A stretch of DNA of 62,882 bases, filler included, from Kipferlia bialata (lineage: Eukaryota), in NCBI GenBank assembly GCA_003568945.1. It is 4 parts of 4 records of this genome, joined end to end, with 100 filler letters (N's around TTAATTAATTAA, not from the genome) between each part and the next. Parts side by side here need not be neighbours in the genome. Positions count along the whole stretch, not along the records: positions 22,316 to 44,519 come from BDIP01000303.1; 3 more parts are not named here. One strand, written 5' to 3'. The notes under the pieces are model-generated. The model saw only the letters and a list, made by a program, of their open reading frames with translations, ran no database searches and had not been told where the DNA came from. Position numbers and translations under genes: made by a program. Numbering within the stretch: the first letter of the stretch is position 1; each line of letters opens with the position of its first letter. Positions 15,140-51,327 of this stretch are shown here, piece after piece.

Positions 15140-15480
15140 CTCTTCATTTCTATGCTTTCTATGCTTTCTAAGCTTTCTATTGGTTTCCATCTTCCTATGG
15201 GATCCCAGCTTTCTACGCTTTCCAGAGTTTCTAGGCCTCCCACGTCTTCCCATCCTTTCTAGGCGGTCCCTTCTTCCTTGGGGATCCCAGCTTTCTACTC
15301 CCACGCTTTCTATGTGTTCCATGTTTCTTTCTAGCCCTTCGCAGCTTTCTATTGGTTCACGTCTTTCTATCCCAAGCTTTCCCTTGGCATTCGCGTCTTT
15401 CTATTGTTTCCCAGGATTTCTACGCTTACCAAGCTTACCTGGCTTTCCAGCCGTACCGTCTCTTTCTTTTTTCCTACTGT
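15140..15480. repeat. Degenerate array of a ~9-bp GCTTTCTAN-like unit
   Basis: Many recurrences of gctttcta/ctttcta/tttcca; GGGATCCCAGCTTTCTAC occurs twice; lies between convergent gene 3' ends. Confidence 0.7.
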
Positions 15481-22215: not shown

Positions 22216-22315
22216 NNNNNNNNNNNNNNNNNNNNNNNNNNNNNNNNNNNNNNNNNNNNTTAATTAATTAANNNNNNNNNNNNNNNNNNNNNNNNNNNNN
22301 NNNNNNNNNNNNNNN
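22216..22315. other. Artificial contig linker (N44-TTAATTAATTAA-N44)
   Basis: 100-nt spacer whose core puts stops in all six frames. Confidence 0.98.
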
Positions 22316-24478: not shown

Positions 24479-26968
24479 CTACACAATGCTATCGTCAGGA
24501 GTAGCAGTTGTCTCCCCCTCACTCTTATCTCCCTCCATGTCTCTTTTGACCCATCCCAGCCCATACCCCAGTGCAATGGAGACTACGAACATGGCACCCA
24601 GCATGAGACCTGCAGCCATCATGATGGTGTCAGCGCCTATGATTAGAAGAATAATACTATTGCACTATATATATGTGTATCTCTGACATGATGATGCCAT
24701 GATGGTGGTAATCGGCAAAAGGTGAATTGAAACAAATCACAATACCCGGACATGATACACTTCACACTTAAGATGCAAATTAGTAGTAAGATATCATAAG
24801 ATAGAATGTGGACTAAAGCGAAGGATAAATGAGTACAATAGATATCATACTATAGAGTGTGTACTACTGGGAAGGTGGTGTTCACATCATATGGTTGTAT
24901 GTACCTAGCTCGAATGCGAACCCTGTGACGGCATAGGACACAGGCTCTAGAGCCACCCAGCAGGTCATGAGGGCACCTGGGGAGTAAGATACGCACACAT
25001 ACACACACGTATACAAACATATGTGTATACTAGCTATTCTGATTGATATTCGCCCAGCATGTCATGAGGGCCCCTAGGGGATAAGTAACAGAGTAACATA
25101 CATACGGTAAACTGTTATCAAGGACAGTCCATCGATAAGTACTCGACTCACCCATGACCTGCCCCTGGGGGTGCTGTTTTACAAATATGTAGAGTGTATA
25201 TATATGCATATGAATAGTAAACATACCCATGACCTGCCCCATGGCCATTCCAAACATATACCTATGTACTATCCATATATATATATATATAGTATATACA
25301 TAAGGTCACGTACCCATGACCTGTCCCATGGCCCCAGGTGGTGCCATTGACTGGAAGAATGTCATCACCATGGGGTTGGCAACACCGTCCAGGAAGCCCA
25401 TGATGCCTGAGGGGTGAGGTTTAGTACATAGATTAGTGACCAGCAACTGTAAGATAGATAACGGAAGGAACCATCGAGGAAGCCCATGATGCCTGAGGAG
25501 TGAGATAATGAATAGTGCAGTCTCTATCTATACAATTATTCATACTCGAAGTGAACAGATCATTGAGATTCTGTACGTGACGTACCTATCATGATTGCCA
25601 TGTATACTGTTGAATCTGCAATGCCCATGACAAAGAGACCGATGCCATACACAAAGGCCACACTGACGTTAGGGAGCATTGTGTACTACTACTAATTATT
25701 TATATGTATACGTGTCAGTCTCATGGAGAATACGGTGGGTATCTGAGGTACATACTTGACATTAATTCCAGAACACAAGCAACTCAACAGACGCATCACA
25801 GAGTCGTTCAGAAGACCTATATATAGAGGGTAAACATATATATATGTTTCAAGTATCAAATATATACATATATATAATATACTCGTACCAGAACACCAGC
25901 AGGACAACAGAGGCATCACGGAGCTTGGTGCCTGGAGTGAGAGGGTCTGTGTAAAAGTGAATCACATCACTACTCAAGACCCAAATATACACATACACAT
26001 ATATATACACGAACCACTTCATCTATGAGTACTCGGAGTGTATAGTACCGCACTTAACACATCAACAAAGTATTCAACTCTCTTAAGGGCTCCTGAATTC
26101 TCTCATATATTCCTCTCTCCATGCTCACCTGACACCATTGAGAAGAGACCCCCGGCCATTGTAGTCAGACCATACGAGGAGACCTGATGTTAACAATCAA
26201 TCAGATACGGAAGATATATATAGGACATGATTGATATATGTCAAATATGGCAACTAAAACGAAGACTACATAGAGACAGATAGTTTCAATATGACTGGGA
26301 AACACTCACCACTCTTCCATAGTCGAGAGCTGTTCCTCCCAGCTCAGACTTGATTCTGAAAGGAACACCGATGAAGAATGGACCACAGAACATGAATGTC
26401 TGGAGGGACATCACTGGGGTGAGGGTAACGAAACTATGTAGATAAGATATGGAAACTGGTGGAGGGGTATATTGCACATGAATGATTGTCTTCAATGACA
26501 TGATAGTGAAAGTAAATACACACTAGCTACCAACCTAGGAATACCAGCAGCATTGTCTTTGACTTGGCGATGAGGGCAAGTCCCGCAAAGGTGGAGGGCT
26601 TAGAGGGTGCCTCAGCATCAGCCTCTCCCTCTCCCTCTGTCTCCTTATCATCATCCTTGGCCTCTGTCTCTGTTTGTGTCTCTGGCTTGTGGATGTGCAC
26701 AAAGAGCAGGGACCCGACATGGAACACAAAGGTCAGGGCGTCGATCAGCATGGCCCAGCCAATGCCAGTCATGGTAGGGACGACCTGATGTTAGTACATA
26801 CATATCCTGCTATATTCAAATATATATAGAAAGAGAGAGAGAGAGAGAGAGAGTCAATCAGCATGGCCCAGCCAATGCCAACCATGNNNNNNNNAGAGAG
26901 AGAGAGAGTCAATCAGCATGGCCCAGCCAATGCCAACCATGGTGGGTACTACCTAGGGTAAGTGAATG

Positions 26969-27012
<44 letters not shown>

Positions 27013-29035
27013 AAGATAGAGAGAGTATATCAGCATGGCCCAGCCAATGCCAACCATTGTAGGGACAACCTGATGTTAATACATTAATATACTGCTATAT
27101 ACAAATATATATAGAAAGAGAGAGAGAGAGAGAGAGCATGGCCCAGCCAATGCCAACCATGGTGGGGACGACCTGATGTTAATACATACATATCCTGATA
27201 TGTATATATATATAGAGAGAGAGAGAGAGAGTCAATCATCATGGCCCAGCCAATGCCAATGGTGGGAACAACCTAGGGTAAGAGTGTATATAGAAAGACA
27301 AAGAGAGAGTATATATATCAGCATGCCGCTTGGAACCATGCATATATGTAGAGGAAAGACTATCTACACCAGTGTATATATGTACTTATAGATGTATACA
27401 TCTAAATATATATATATATATATATAAGACTCTAACCCATACCTCTCCAGTATCTGGATCGACCATGTCACTTGGGAACAGGGATATGACAGCACCCCCT
27501 AGGAGGGGACCCGTGAACAGAGAGGACTGGGGTGAGGTACACACAAATACACTGATACACTGATACACTGAAATAGTCAACAACAACAGACACATCCACA
27601 TGGGAATATATATATATATCACTCATACTCTTGTAGCTAGTGATGACGCAGCATTGGCAGCCTGCAGGATACTAATAGTATTCATATATATATATATACA
27701 ACACTTACCCTTGTTGCAAGGGACGCAGCAGCATTGGCAGCCTGCAGGTACTGGGAGTAGTCCTTCCTGCCACTATCTCTCTCTCTCTCTCCCTCTCCCT
27801 CTGTCTCTGTCTCTGTCTCTCCCTTTGTCTCTGTCTCTGGCTTTGCCCCAGGGGCGTTACCTATGGGTAAGACAGAGTACACATACACATAGATTGCGTA
27901 TATATCACTTCATATACTGACGTACCGTTAGACATGATGAGGGGTATCATGGCCATGTGGGCTGGGAAGTAGAGGGCGTCTGTGACCTGGGTGTCAGAGA
28001 GAGGAAGAGGGAGAGAGGGGAGATACAGTACCCCAAATGACACACTCACAAGGATAGTATTGAGAACTGAGAATTGATGTGAATGCCAATATGTGAATAT
28101 ATTAGCAGATATCATCAAATAGAGACACCATAAGGGATACTAATACCGTGCCCCAAATAGCACACTGACGATGACCAGCTGTAACTGATACTGATACATA
28201 TGGATACATAAGTATGGATACATATATATACATACGATATATACATATACATATATGTATACATTCCGTACCCCGAATAGGACACTGATGATGACCAGCT
28301 GCCATATCTCCACTGTGCCAAAGAGGATGAGGAGGGAGAGGGCTGAGGGATTAGGTTGAGTATGGAATACTCATTAAGTATATATATATATGTGTGTATA
28401 TATATACCATATCTCCACTGTGCCAAGGAGGATGAGGAGGGAGAGGGCTGGGTTAGTTAGTTGAGTAACTCTATACTCTATACACAAATCTCCATCAAGT
28501 ATATACCATATACAAATATATATATATGTATATGGATGAGTGTGAATAGGGATGGGTTAGTATAATCAGAAGTTCACGAAATATTTATATATATATACAT
28601 ATATAGTGGGCAGTGCGTCTTACCTATGACAACTGATCCCTTGAAGACTGATGCCCCCAGCACGGCCCACTTGATGTCAGGCAGCCTGGTGTTAGTACAT
28701 ATATATATATATATATATAACAAATCAGTATATATGTATGGCTGCTATGTATATGGATATCTATGATGCCCCGAGCCCACTTGATGTCATGAAGCCGGGT
28801 ATCAGTTGAATGTACCTGTCCACCAAGCTCCTCCCATACAGCATACATATTAAATCAATATTTATATATATATATATATATATGTTCAATTCATTACATA
28901 CCGCTAAGCTATCAATAATGCGTTGTTACATGCGTTGTACCTATCAACCAGGCTACCACCATACAGCATCAGCAGCCCCCTGGGTAGAGACGAGGACAGC
29001 AGTAACATGCCCAGGACAGTGCCAGAGTCAGTGAG
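24479..29035 (-). CDS. Major facilitator superfamily transporter, DHA3/MFS_3-like, about 14 exons; N-terminus missing
   Basis: Spliced in frame: LTDSGTVLGMLLLSSSLPRGLLMLYGGSLVDR|LPDIKWAVL..|..IISVLFG|VTDALYFPAHMAMIP..|SSLFTGPLLGGAVI..|..AMLIDALTF..|..FFQSMAPPGAMGQVMG|..EPVSYAVTG; MFS motif A-like GGSLVDR; TAG 24479-24481. Confidence 0.9.
26748..27280 (-). repeat. Intronic tandem copies of an acceptor plus exon start (VVPTMxGIGWAML)
   Basis: Real exon starts 26784; copies start 26952, 27069, 27172 and 27272, each running into (CT)n; one further partial copy abuts the N gap. Confidence 0.9.
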
Positions 29036-29120
29036 CTGGAGTGAGTCTGTAGAACATATATATATTGACGTGGAAGTCCAGTTCACATAGGTGGTATTGA
29101 AGTAAAGGGTATATACCTGG

Positions 29121-29168
<48 letters not shown>

Positions 29169-29273
29169 GACAGGAGGAGCATGCCTAGGACAGTGCCAGA
29201 GTCAGTGAGCTGTAATAAGTATTGTATAGTATATATATGAAGAGAAAGAGCGGGGGGGGGGGGGGGAGAGCAA

Positions 29274-29317
<44 letters not shown>

Positions 29318-29318
29318 C

Positions 29319-29720
29319 GTACTCTAGCTTCATCCCTAGGGCCTCGACTTCAAGGGTGGGGATCTCCCCCTCTGCTAGCTTGTTGAACCCCTGGTGTGAG
29401 TACTGGATCCCCGGTGAGATATATTTGTCTCAATGACTGGTGCTATTCATATAAATATATTCATAAGTAAAGCTGCCACTGAGATATAGAATGGCAGCTC
29501 CCAGAGTCACCGCTTCGAACTTACTCCGCATCCTGTCTGAGACTAAGTCCCTATAGACAGAGAGAAGGATCACTAACTGGTGTGGGAACCCTACCTCCAT
29601 AGAGAATACTGTAATGACTCCGACATCCAAGGGGTTGGGCTCTCCCCCTGGAGGACACTCCGCACACACCATGTGGATCAGCACAGTGACAACAAAGAGC
29701 ACAGCCGCACAGATGCGCAT
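29319..29720 (-). CDS. 5' fragment of a signal-peptide protein, cut off at a poly-G run
   Basis: MRICAAVLFVVTVLIHMVCA|ECPPGGEPNPLDVGVITVFSME with donor GTAGGG, next exon after ctcacaccag (GFNKLAEGEIPTLEVEALGMKL). Confidence 0.45.
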
Positions 29721-34513: not shown

Positions 34514-36960
34514 TCATACACTCGTCACAACCTTGGAGATACGTCCTAGACATGTCATACATTGGATCACTATGAGGACAGATACCGCACAATCTACCTT
34601 GTCCCCTTCTCGAAACACTGGTTGATCATTGTGACCCTCTCCCCCTCTCACCCTTTCCCTCGTTCTCTCTAGTAGAATGCCTGATCGGCCTGGCTGGGGG
34701 GTATGTAGGCTGGGCCAGGGTTGGAGGAGGCTGGGGGTCAGAGAGTGGAAGTGGTAAGATTGGGACCCCATATACACAACAGCGATACTGATACTGATAC
34801 TGATACCGGCTAGCACATAGTGAAAAGTACTCCACCCACCGTTCTGTCCATATTGGTCTGGCTGTGCAGGTGCTCCATAGGCAGAGTACACACCTTGTGG
34901 TAGTAAGTCACTTAGATACACAGAGAGAGATGGAGACTGAGACTTCGAGACCAGGTGGTACTAAGTAGTACTAAGTAGTACTAAGCAGTGCTAAGTAGTA
35001 CTAAGTGGCACTAAGTAGTACTACGTAGTACTAACCAGTACTAACCTGGGGCAGGGGCAGGGGGAGCTCCAGCTCCATATCCAGGTGCCCCATAGGGTCC
35101 AGTCTGGGCTGAAGGTGAGAGTCGAGTTTAAGCAGAAAGACGGAGGAATGGGTCTAATGCCATAGAGAGGGTAGTCAATATAGAGGAGTACTTGATGGCG
35201 GCCTATCACCAAGGTGAAGAGAAGTAGACAACTAGCATTGGTGAACTATATACTCACTCCCCACCTGGGTTCTGGGGGGCATGTGCATAGGAGGGCTGGC
35301 CATAGGGGGCTGGAGAGTGAGGCAAAAAGTGAGACAATGATAGTGGATGTCACCCGGATGAGTATGTCCGGCTAACCTGGTGCTGTCTGTGCCGGTGGGT
35401 ACTGAGGGGACTGGGTGGATACAGGCCCAGGGGCCGGGGCAGGGGAGGGTGTGTATGCTGCCACTGTCTGCTGGGCCATGGTGGTCAAGGGGTTGGAGGT
35501 CTGGTGTGAGAGGGATGGATAGACGGAGAGAGATACTCGTGTGGGACTGACCTCGCCGTGTCCCCTGTTGGCTAGCCCCCCTGAGACTGCCCCTACCCCT
35601 GCACCCACCACAGCACCCAGGGCAGCAGCCTTGGCAGCCTTGGTGGCAGTCATCTTGATGCACCCTCGGGGTCAGGGGTAGAGAGAGAGGAAGAGAGTGC
35701 GCAAGTTGATAGTACCTAAGATACCCCATGCGATGAATATGGGCACAAGGCAGAAGCATGCAATGCCCCCTATCTTCTGGTACCCACCTAGGGTCAAAGT
35801 CGGTAGGACTCCAATATCATATGTCATCACACCAGTATATATGACACCCTAAACCGTGTCATTAGTGCAGACACACATGAATATCATCACACACCATACG
35901 AGCAGGCGTTCTCCTTCTGGGTGGGGGTAACTGCAGACACAGAATCCTAAGGGTCAGAATACGTTGAAGGAGAGGAGAGTTTGAGGATACATTTGCTATG
36001 ACACACCCACGCACTATTCTCTCAATAGAATCCTCTGATCATCATGCACATATACATATACACATCCCACTCACACTGTAGAAGCTGCACATGTCCCTGG
36101 CCATGTCAGCCAGTATGTACATGGAGACAGGGGAGTCTGGGGTGGGGGGAGGGGGGGAAGTGTATGTATAGTGTGGATACAGATATATATACATAGAGAG
36201 AGAGAGAGAGAGAGAGCGTAGGAGGAAGAGATAGCAGTCTGACACCATTGACTGGATATGTATACACACACTCCCGTACCCACAGTGAACTGACCACAGT
36301 ATGTGTTGTGGGTGTTGTAGCTGGAGGAGGTGGCGCCGATGAGGGAGCTGGAGGCATAGTAGTAGTCGCTGAGGGTAGAGAGAGAGAGAGGGAGAGGCGG
36401 AAAGGCGGAGAGACAAAACAGATACGTACGCAAATGTCTGGATGCCGGACTTGAGACACACGTCGCATCTGTAGGTCTGAGAGTCAGCAGACCCCGAAGA
36501 CTGCATGTTCTTGAGTGAGGGGGGAGGGGTAAGAGAGAGAAGAAGAAGAGAGGGAAAGAATAGGAAGAGAGAGAAGGGGGGAGGGGGGGAGTTGGCTCAA
36601 GGAAGAAAGCCTGAGAATGATATAGGTGCAACAGTGTGAACACTGAGAGATAGAGACAAGAGACACATAGTGACTTAGCTACCTTAGAGTCGACTATGAG
36701 TGTGGCCGGGGTGGAGTAGTTGCAGATGTTCTCACTCGTGCCGCTCAGCCATATCAGTGCGGCACCACCAAGACCAGCGAAGACAGCCACGACAATGCCT
36801 GGGGGGAGACCGGGGGGGGGGGGGGGGGGGGGGCCAAAGACTTGACAGAGATTTCTGAATGGGGAGGGGGGGGGGGGGTTACTATCCACACACTAAGTGG
36901 TAGTGATGAAGGACTTAGGAGGTGGATCCATATATATATATATATATATATGGAGGCCAT
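34514..36960 (-). CDS. Membrane protein with Cys-containing segment and Pro/Tyr/Gly/Gln-rich tail, many small exons (both ends uncertain)
   Basis: Exons GIVVAVFAGLGGAALIWL..NIC, YRCDVC, YCGQF, AALGAVVGAGVGAVSGG, APYGQPSY, GPYGAPGYG, each flanked by canonical splice sites. Confidence 0.6.
34958..35045. repeat. 10-bp minisatellite (GTACTAAGTA)n, about 9 units, at an intron 5' end
   Basis: ctaagtagta ctaagtagta ctaagcagtg ... ctaaccagta ctaac directly adjoining the minus-strand donor G|GTTAGT. Confidence 0.9.
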
Positions 36961-37860: not shown

Positions 37861-38241
37861 GTGTGGACAGTCTAGTGCTTGTACTGCAGTGCAGCCTGCA
37901 CCCTTTTGATCGGCGTGTAGATACTTATAGTGTACGTTACATACACCCCAGGATAGTTACCATCTCTGACAGGGACCGTTAGTGGTGAGGCTGACTCTAG
38001 GTGACAGTCAGAGCTCTACTAGGCGTTGCAACCACAACACCCAACACCAATAGATGGTCTCTTATGTGATGGTATGAGCCTACCCTCTGCTGTGATGCCC
38101 TCAGTCCTAACTTCGCACGTCTTGCTCATCTGTGTCACTTCTCTGCACGTATTGACATGCGTGGGTCGTCTCTAGTCCTTACACTGCTCTGCCTTCTAAG
38201 TGTGGTTATATGCACCACCGCGGTATCAGGGCAGAGGAGGA

Positions 38242-38654
38242 GGATTGTGTCTGGGGAGTGGGAGGACGGCACTCCAATCGAGAGACAGGCAGCAGGTGGG
38301 ATGTGTTAAGTGTATCCGCTCAATGCTAGTAAGGGGCGCCCCTCGGTGTGTCTCTGATCACACCACAGTAGTCAATGACTGTTCACATCTATGTGACCGT
38401 GACACCAGGCATAGTGTCCGGAGAATGGGAGGACGGCACCCCAATTGCCAGGCAATCAACAGGTATAGGATACAAACATTGTCACATTGACTACATGAGA
38501 AATGATACAGTGCCTTATGTCATTAGAATTATGGTGTCACGCGTCCCTAGTATCCCTATATGAGTGCAATCTACTAGCCTCTATCTTCTTCCCATAACAG
38601 GCATAGTGTCTGGGGAATGGGAGGACGGGACTCCAATTGCCAGGGTGTCTGCAG
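38242..38654 (+). repeat. Three tandem 54-nt exon-like units encoding (G/R)IVSGEWEDGTPI
   Basis: Units 38242-38295, 38409-38462 and 38601-38654; each ends at G|GT; units 2 and 3 are preceded by an acceptor; phase 1-1. Confidence 0.85.
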
Positions 38655-39664
38655 GTACACCAATATCTCTATATATTAATGCGTACCCACAGCCCTCCCT
38701 ATCCTTTCCCCCGTGACTCTAGGCCACAGACAGATATGCTACCCTGTAGCATGTGACGTAGCTCCTGTGTGCTACTTGTGCTGGGACATATAGTATGGTG
38801 GAGTGAGTCACTCCAAGTGACGAGGGAGAGTGTCCTCAGCCCCTGAGTCAGTGTATGTGTGTTATGATAAATGTGGATCTGGACGTATCCGTGTGTGTAT
38901 CCGTGTAGACATGAGATTTGAGTCTGAAAGTGAGGCTTGGCCTGATCAAAGCATCGACGCATCATTAGCTCAAACGTCTTAAACCACACTGATCAGTCTG
39001 ACTAGGGTACCTATTCATCTCTTCACGGTATTAGTGCGTATCAACCACTTCCAAATAGGAGAGAGGAGACTATGTGGGGTGGTAATACTTCAGGTAGGCT
39101 ATTTGTCTAGCGTATCCGCTATTGGTGGGGTTACTCATCATACGGTCACTCACACTGTTTCAGTATCATCTCATACTTGATAGACAGTCAACGTATACCA
39201 TAGTGGTGTGGCGACACAGCTGTCTACCTCTTCACCCTAACCCCCAGGCTCCTCAGGTGCATTCAGTTTCTCGAGTGCAGATACCCCCCCAGATGCCACT
39301 GGGTCCTCTGTCTTCAGTGGTCATGCCGCTGCTAATAGGCAGTCAGTGTTCGGTGCATCAAAGGCATCTGCCGGATGGGGTCAGGCCACAGGTGGGTGAA
39401 CCTCTCACTATCTCCTACTCTCTCTCTCTTTGCCCCCCCCCCCCTACTCCCCTTTACTCTCCCCTTCTCTTTTACATGCCACTGTTTTGTGTCTTCTCCC
39501 CCTGTGTTGAGTACACTGTACTCACTCAATGCCCTTCACACTCTCTGCCCATGTTTCTCCTTTCAATATATATGTGTGTCTGGCTATACATGCCTCTCTC
39601 TCTCACTCCAGCCACCTCTGGTTGGGGTCACCCTTCCTCCTCCACCCCTACCCCCCTTGGGGCT

Positions 39665-44519: not shown

Positions 44520-44619
44520 NNNNNNNNNNNNNNNNNNNNNNNNNNNNNNNNNNNNNNNNNNNNTTAATTAATTAANNNNNNNNNNNNNNNNNNNNNNNNN
44601 NNNNNNNNNNNNNNNNNNN
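44520..44619. other. Artificial contig linker
   Basis: N44-TTAATTAATTAA-N44. Confidence 0.98.
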
Positions 44620-50841: not shown

Positions 50842-51296
50842 ATGTGGAAGTGTGTGCTGGTTCTGGCCCTTTTGGGCTGTGCTATGGCAACTGGCCTACC
50901 CGATAGCTACACCTACAAGTACGTTAGTGTGTTTTTGTGAGTTCTAGGGTCCATTTCATTGACATTACCTTTTTTTTCTTATTCCCAGCTACGGTGTGAC
51001 CTTTGACGAGGTTAAGGGATACAACATCACCACCACACCCGATGTGGACTGTGCTGCTTTCGGTACGTGCTCTTATCAGCAGTTTGTGATGTTGACAATC
51101 GTGGACCTATCATCCCTTGTCAGTGTGGATCATCGTCTTTGCTCTGTGGCTCTCCCCCCCTTTGTGTTTCTCTTCTCTATGTGCATGTATGGTGCTTACC
51201 CCCAGCCTACTTCGAGGACATGCTCGACGAGATTGGCTGGATGCCCATCAGGGTCACCACCAACGGGTGAGTATATACATGTCCACTCTCCCTCGT

Positions 51297-51327
<31 letters not shown>

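Follow-up and report, generated by a model that had tools for sequence, protein, structure and literature searches.

Duplicated exon-intron boundaries lying inside introns are known from amphioxus and human genes. In amphioxus, such duplications, called 'mirages', occur in Adh3, the globin genes BflGb6 and BflGb9, troponin C and PGBD5 (PMC3087553, PMC3902484), and their origin has been called unclear (PMC3087553). In the human CBS gene, the allele c.844_845ins68 duplicates the last 52 nt of an intron together with the first 16 nt of the exon, with a few divergent bases (PMC7490669). In this paper, we describe truncated copies of exon ends in introns of the free-living protist Kipferlia bialata, above all in an MFS transporter gene that lies in a 62,882-nt stretch of its genome (filler included; assembly GCA_003568945.1), hereafter the window. 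The structure of these copies is of a known, mirage-like kind; the new part is an excess of silent differences from the exons that goes beyond the limit for dead copies.

The window consists of separate contigs joined across linkers of N, and our copy count covers four of its genes, which were picked from a diagonal scan of the whole window with one contrast gene, that of phospholipase B, included. The models of the three genes other than the MFS gene were built from the sequence only. Two contig sets from one sample, X1 and X2, were compared with the window. X2, taken as RNA by guess, has spliced contigs at a depth of 6-9, which drop rare forms. X1 is possibly the source of the window itself and hence not independent, so that bridging by X1 contigs tests for stitching and not the sample.

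Exon-end copies and their geometry

A total of 33 copies were found: 16 in the MFS gene, 13 in a second gene encoding a predicted membrane protein, 3 in the UPF0047 gene and 1 in the phospholipase B gene. Alignment of the MFS exons with their flanking introns placed the 16 truncated copies in 8 of 13 complete introns plus the 5' remnant, which bears out an earlier note on this DNA that most introns of the gene carry them. The 13 copies of the second gene are spread over 3 of its 5 introns plus the upstream intron part. No copy was found at a score of 14 in the diagonal scan of the other intron-bearing genes (12-18 kb, 35-36.5 kb and 41-44 kb).

The orientation of the copies is uniform, acceptor-side copies lying upstream and donor-side copies downstream, as had been claimed before: all 17 matches to a downstream exon are to its start, and all 16 matches to an upstream exon are to its end. 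The former begin at or near the first exon base (an N gap and a 3-nt deletion explain the two offsets of 11 and 17), and the latter all finish within 2 nt of the last exon base. The copies are one-sided and 11-53 nt long, and comprise, like mirages, an exon end plus the adjoining intron end, with intron flanks up to 27/30 identical. The splice dinucleotide is kept in 20 of 24 boundary-anchored copies (AG in 10/12, GT in 10/12). Among the 20 affected exon ends, 13 have a single copy and 7 have 2-5, whose units vary in both break point and acceptor type. Copy-bearing introns are longer than the others (median 283 versus 89 nt), and the break adjoins a dinucleotide run in 13 of the 33 copies, compared with 17.8% of intron windows. 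When the introns were shuffled, 9 of 800 tests reached the threshold, so that about one of the weakest matches may be due to chance, and a control with non-adjacent exons gave 5 weak matches in 169 tests at p<0.05. Nested units, made up of an exon end, a short whole intron and the next exon start, were also seen at 60570-61112 and 28775-28844; at one such junction an exon 3 start is joined to an exon 2 end via a short common exon motif.

On re-alignment, the coordinates and codon changes given in the earlier note proved correct for the MFS gene with one exception. The five changes listed for the copy of the exon 1 start are silent at the protein level, the last two lying at the edge of the (TC)n run, and the intron 1 copy of the exon 1 end shows four silent changes and one Gly>Arg. 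The donor-side copy of exon 5 does read AANAASSLATR, but its SLATR part is recoded in 4 of 5 codons and not fully, Thr being unchanged.

Silent differences exceed the limit for dead copies

Distinct differences between copies and exons were counted once per exon end, and the bootstrap was taken over the 20 exon ends. Codon positions 1, 2 and 3 hold 12, 8 and 45 differences, respectively, and 16 of 410 non-degenerate sites differ compared with 34 of 110 four-fold sites, a ratio of 0.126 (bootstrap 0.08-0.18). The premise put forward before, that dead intronic duplicates decay without regard to codon position, is incomplete and sets too weak a null: as a dead copy changes everywhere and a live exon only silently, the expected ratio is already ~0.5, not 1. 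The silent excess holds against this 2:1 expectation as well (binomial p 2e-6), and a neutrally decaying dead duplicate, for which a ratio of at least ~0.5 is required, is therefore rejected. With one copy per exon end the counts are 14/407 and 27/109, and the ratio is alike in the MFS gene (0.12) and in the other genes (0.14).

Over all copies, the values are 0.22 for four-fold and 0.036 for non-degenerate sites, with a ratio of 0.162. Dead duplicates simulated and passed through the same finder gave ratios of 0.52-0.55, and 0 of 1200 sets came out at or below 0.162, which rules out detection bias as the cause. Base composition and CpG are likewise rejected, because the excess persists for each base and outside CpG (z 4.5). 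When copies are compared with each other and the exon is left out, third positions account for 12 of the 16 extra alleles (p 7e-4). There is no stop codon in the 33 aligned copy stretches. The silent changes are lopsided, 24 being from exon G/C to copy A/T and 9 the reverse (p 0.014), while 13 keep the G/C or A/T class. A gradient of differences along the copy and an age order from the nearest to the farthest copy were looked for and are not clear. An excess beyond the dead-copy limit implies that the two sequences were both working exons during most of their divergence, and it likely calls for working exons of diverged alleles as donors.

Displaced alleles as a possible origin

With moderate confidence, we infer that the copies are former working exon ends from diverged alleles, left behind by imprecise recombination. 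The copies of the exon 7 start in intron 6 of the MFS gene, one of which (at 26886) sits behind an 8-N gap, form an array in which two acceptor types and at least three break points are interleaved. Two sites 6 nt apart show all four combinations in this array, and from the farthest to the nearest copy there are 12 changes over four silent sites, the farthest copy having one replacement and one 3-nt deletion. In exon 5 of the second gene, three linked silent changes are restricted to the middle copy. Both cases fit a pool of coexisting diverged versions. It had been proposed earlier that the copies exchange sequence with the exon or record its successive states; the direction of this proposal was right, but succession in a single lineage is not supported, as it needs the 12 changes at four silent sites, alternating acceptor types and changes confined to a middle copy. 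From the all-copy values, the fraction of four-fold sites that differed when the copies formed is estimated at about 0.15 or more.

The proposed course of events is as follows. Roughly 15-20% of silent sites would differ between alleles in the population, whose introns, rich in microsatellites, would barely align, so that exchange would begin inside exons. One break end would then copy the partner's exon end, its splice site and some intron, and the copied end would rejoin via short matches, often at a dinucleotide run, by one-sided invasion or by microhomology-driven unequal crossover. As a result, the former exon start would stay behind upstream, or the former exon end downstream, and further rounds together with unequal exchange would stack and mix the layers. 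The spliceosome would keep to the outermost sites, as exon definition would predict; with these still in use, the layers would be tolerated and decay slowly. Microhomology template switching has been described (PMC4888836), and in Schizophyllum, where silent diversity is 0.20 (PMC4576712) and so close to our estimate, crossovers fall in exons because only exons are similar enough (PMC4209137). Non-homologous end joining is missing from metamonads and Rad51A from fornicates, meiotic genes are retained, and a relative is predicted to be haploid (PMC8516963). It is a more tentative suggestion that the exchange of exon ends with highly diverged partner chromosomes, by one-sided repair, is routine in Kipferlia, which would keep the displaced versions as a layered archive in its introns.

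Several observations weigh against displaced alleles. No second allele was seen, the listed X1 contigs carrying no variant letters (contigs drop variants), and two metagenome scans yielded no other allele or relative. The silent diversity required comes close to the highest values recorded. After a neutral swap the silent changes should be symmetrical, whereas the G/C bias of 24 to 9 calls for some decay, or for selection or conversion that favours G/C in the exon. More distant copies show no clearly stronger decay (0-fold differences 9/239 versus 3/149), and for 20 of the 33 breaks there is no dinucleotide run within 10 nt. The clustering by gene (introns with copies: MFS 8/13, second gene 3/5, UPF0047 3/4, phospholipase B 1/16) is left unexplained, and extra contig depth at the exon 4 start points to similar sequence elsewhere in the genome.

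Among the alternatives, the one that survives best, though we consider it improbable, is a mirage-like turnover within one lineage, i.e. tandem duplication of the boundary, after which the silent sites of the exon outpace the decay of the intronic copy. The structure is known with the same orientation (PMC3087553), some copies do duplicate each other (common break points and 2x depth), and the preference of the silent changes for G/C in the exon agrees with a faster silent change there, possibly through codon selection, GC-biased conversion or a raised mutation rate in exons. Equal rates, however, hold the ratio at ~0.5 or above, and two-way conversion would, by argument, raise it, so that the silent sites of the exon must run several times faster than neutral. 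This origin would further demand that the sites of the exon-7 array changed three times each, with hardly any decay of the farthest copy, and the thirteen silent changes that keep the G/C or A/T class also speak against it.

Hardly different in probability, and if anything a shade lower, is an origin from paralogs, in which ectopic recombination with diverged gene copies, or their collapse, left partial exons. It predicts the same silent excess and would account for only some genes being affected. Moreover, an X1 piece matching 27949-27989 (the exon 4 start) carries an acceptor flank of its own, along with a (TC)n tail, outside this intron, and the bin at the exon 4 start has a depth of 1640 versus 423, as if about four such copies lay elsewhere in the genome. 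On the other hand, the listed pieces of 85-90% likeness give exons 6 and 8-14 an even, single-copy depth, no Kipferlia paralog was found among 4 protein matches or the shorter proteins within the limits of the word index, and the sixteen copies in one gene would require many paralogs. The multi-copy piece resembling exon 4 is perhaps the copy stack of a distant paralog.

Splicing of the copy-bearing introns

The X2 contigs join 12 of the 13 MFS introns at the modelled sites, including all 8 that carry copies, and for introns 1 and 2 the evidence is a stretch of 59 letters that separates exons 1 and 3 and fits exon 2 in size. The contig at exon 5 has the letters of the true end and not those of the donor copy, and at intron 6 all five exon-7 copies are skipped. 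No copy is included in the X2 contigs, where rare forms would be dropped. In contigs at this depth, regular splicing is thus undisturbed, as it is with mirages. The suggestion of the earlier note that the copies are used in splicing is not borne out, since the spliced contigs use only the outer true sites and rejoining in register is possible for 1 of 33 copies. Of 32 splice sites scored, the true one is better than its copy in 20, equal in 5 and worse in 7. The copies in intron 12 enclose an inner 78-nt GT..AG stretch, and use of the outermost sites despite this stretch fits exon definition, although decay of mis-spliced RNA could mask the rest. That good inner sites are skipped suggests exon definition in a protist whose spliceosome is reduced, with 87/174 proteins (PMC6679479). 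In most introns of all four modelled genes, a branch-point-like motif precedes the intron end by 7-9 nt. The unused acceptor copy at 28447 has such a motif at 6 or 10 nt, and this distance may set the choice of site.

It is quite unlikely that the copies are selected coding templates, whether for frequent copying back into the exon or for translation in rare isoforms. Stops are absent and replacements few, AG or GT is mostly kept, and 12 of 32 copy sites score equal to or above the true site. Nevertheless, the spliced contigs skip each copy-bearing intron whole, in-register rejoining is as rare as stated above, frequent copying back would erase the silent differences, and several copies have lost their splice site or carry a deletion.

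Two further candidates were rejected, namely mutually exclusive tandem exons, as the copies are one-sided, short and not in the X2 contigs, and intron gain by duplication of an AG|GT proto-splice site, as in-register rejoining via GT and AG is found in 1/33 only.

The copies are real intron DNA

The copies are real, unspliced intron DNA. A single X1 contig of 4506 nt spans 24480-26815 with zero differences at a depth of 449.6 and holds five copies together with their exons. A 613-nt contig carries exon 3 plus both its donor-side copies on one diagonal, and a 400-nt contig appears, from the positions of its pieces, to join the exon 5 donor copy and the true exon end at an 80-nt offset. In the seven bridged copies, 15 of 20 differences are already at third positions. 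A 58-nt X1 piece of the exon-7 copies has a depth of 896, twice 449.6, as expected from two identical exon-7 copies around the N gap. The least secure copy is that at 29209, whose X1 contig of 139 nt has 5 differing letters and a depth of 186.7 (about half) and is unbridged to exon 1 across a 42-nt (AG)n run. An assembly artefact, in which alleles or strains were stitched at microsatellites, is very improbable: although the exon-7 array contains an N gap, no listed X1 contig bridges the whole array or the copy at 29209, and X1 offers no independent check, the three bridging contigs, their third-position differences and the depth of neighbouring contigs (317-450, not halves) all stand against it.

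The MFS gene and other features of the window

The joined MFS exons form an open frame of 458 amino acids plus stop, with a Pfam MFS_1 match (E 1.3e-20). A single exon searched against a protein collection gave one match among 56 candidates, an MFS protein of Kipferlia bialata, and protein searches yielded no usable relative, the matches being at 25% identity with none among the shorter proteins. The contig with the MFS gene has 22204 nt, in agreement with the length listed for the database protein P0001 (MFS). The first 150 residues of P0001 derive from other sequence and are probably mispredicted. Upstream of exon 1 (29035-29320), the assembly enters poly-G at 29252-29317, and an X2 contig runs on upstream of this exon with 103 letters that have no match in the window. 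Coordinates are listed in Table 1.

Table 1. Genes, exons and exon-end copies in the window
Feature	Position	Strand	Remarks
N runs around 12-nt linker	22216-22315, 44520-44619, 59771-59870		joins between contigs
MFS transporter gene	24479..29035	-	14 exons in window, 13 GT..AG introns; true 5' exon(s) outside window
MFS exons 1-5	29035-28941, 28685-28624, 28342-28272, 27986-27926, 27860-27709	-
MFS exons 6-10	27526-27443, 26784-26535, 26413-26310, 26183-26129, 25931-25889	-
MFS exons 11-14	25662-25586, 25406-25314, 24976-24905, 24636-24479	-
Acceptor-side copy, exon 1 start	29160..29209	-	runs into (TC)n run; X1 contig 139 nt
Intron 1, donor-side copy, exon 1 end	28844-28816	-
Intron 1, 20-nt intron remnant between the two copies	28775..28844 (whole unit)	-
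Intron 1, acceptor-side copy, exon 2 start	28795-28775	-	AG lost
Acceptor-side copy, exon 3 start	28407..28447	-	one replacement only
Intron 3, donor-side copy, exon 3 end	28181-28152	-	GT>GC; within 28023..28181
Intron 3, second donor-side copy	28049-28023	-	shorter, more decayed; outside counted set
Donor-side copy, exon 5 end	27630..27668	-
Intron 6, five acceptor-side copies, exon 7 start	26854..27272	-	at 27272, 27172, 27069, 26952, 26886
Donor-side copy, exon 10 end	25769..25803	-	GT lost; inside 4506-nt X1 contig, 0 differences
Acceptor-side copy, exon 12 start	25470..25492	-
Intron 12, two donor-side copies, exon 12 end	25246-25227, 25165-25152	-	within 25053..25246
Intron 12, acceptor-side copy, exon 13 start	25071-25053	-
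Second gene, predicted membrane protein	59984..62420	+	6 exons modelled; exon 1 without Pfam match
UPF0047 gene	54494..56093	-	5 exons modelled; copies 55771-55733, 55026-55010, 54763-54730
Phospholipase B gene (contrast)	51206..54118	+	16 short introns; one weak copy 52425-52441

Elsewhere in the window, a 29-nt exact repeat, probably an assembly overlap, flanks an N gap (11991-12074), a degenerate T-rich repeat lies at 15155-15400, and an intron contains a 10-nt palindromic tandem repeat (34955-35055). Three similar 54-nt stretches at 38238-38660, at least two of them with both splice sites, resemble whole repeated exons of a repeat protein and not truncated copies.

Implications

[quoted passage not shown] Should the copies be displaced alleles, they would point to recombination and to about 15-20% silent diversity in a metamonad without observed sex. 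K. bialata has about 125,000 introns (PMC5874029), and a genome-wide count over them would then make outcrossing and population diversity testable from one assembly. If the introns do hold a layered archive, one genome would give both silent and replacement diversity, map hot spots of exchange and prove recombination, and the layers would show a way in which introns grow inward from their edges. The amphioxus mirages would likewise gain a testable mechanism, with further cases predicted in highly polymorphic species.

Comparison with known systems

The pilS loci of Neisseria and the VSG pseudogenes of trypanosomes are silent, truncated donor cassettes with coding-like differences, which feed the expressed gene and diversify its protein. 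In the Kipferlia copies, by contrast, the protein is conserved, the genes are of housekeeping type and there is no sign of directed transfer.

Tandem exon duplications and mutually exclusive exons (PMC9013439) share with our copies the exon-like sequence within introns and the silent divergence, but such exons are whole, have both splice sites and are spliced in, whereas the Kipferlia copies are truncated, one-sided and skipped. The 37-bp variable number tandem repeat in IVS7 of human F7 is similar in that the downstream donor pseudo-sites are silent and the most upstream site is used; it differs in having identical repeat units at one locus and no codon signal (PMC1557585). In the human CBS allele, too, splicing removes a copy with a different exon variant, but this is a single allele of one gene with a replacement variant and no silent-site pattern (PMC7490669).

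The earlier note knew of no description of these copies as a general pattern. Their structure has in fact been described, in amphioxus mirages, F7 and CBS; a silent bias was not found described in the literature consulted, in which neither the Kipferlia copies nor a silent excess beyond 2:1 appear. The consulted text of PMC5874029, PMC6679479, PMC3488318 and PMC9013439 contains no mention of such copies. The word 'synonymous' has 0 occurrences in the main text of PMC3087553 and PMC3902484, while the original mirage paper may discuss silent bias and the mirage alignments in the supplements of PMC3087553 may bear on novelty.

The closest described system is thus that of the amphioxus mirages. 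As described, mirages share with the Kipferlia copies the duplication of exon-intron boundaries on the 5' as well as the 3' side with splicing intact, many but not all of them keep AG or GT, and their host is highly heterozygous. The Kipferlia copies, on the other hand, are single at 13 of 20 exon ends, and their arrays mix several break points and do not appear to be built of one homogenised unit. They reach a density of up to 8 of 13 introns, their host is a metamonad protist, and they show a measured silent excess beyond 2:1.

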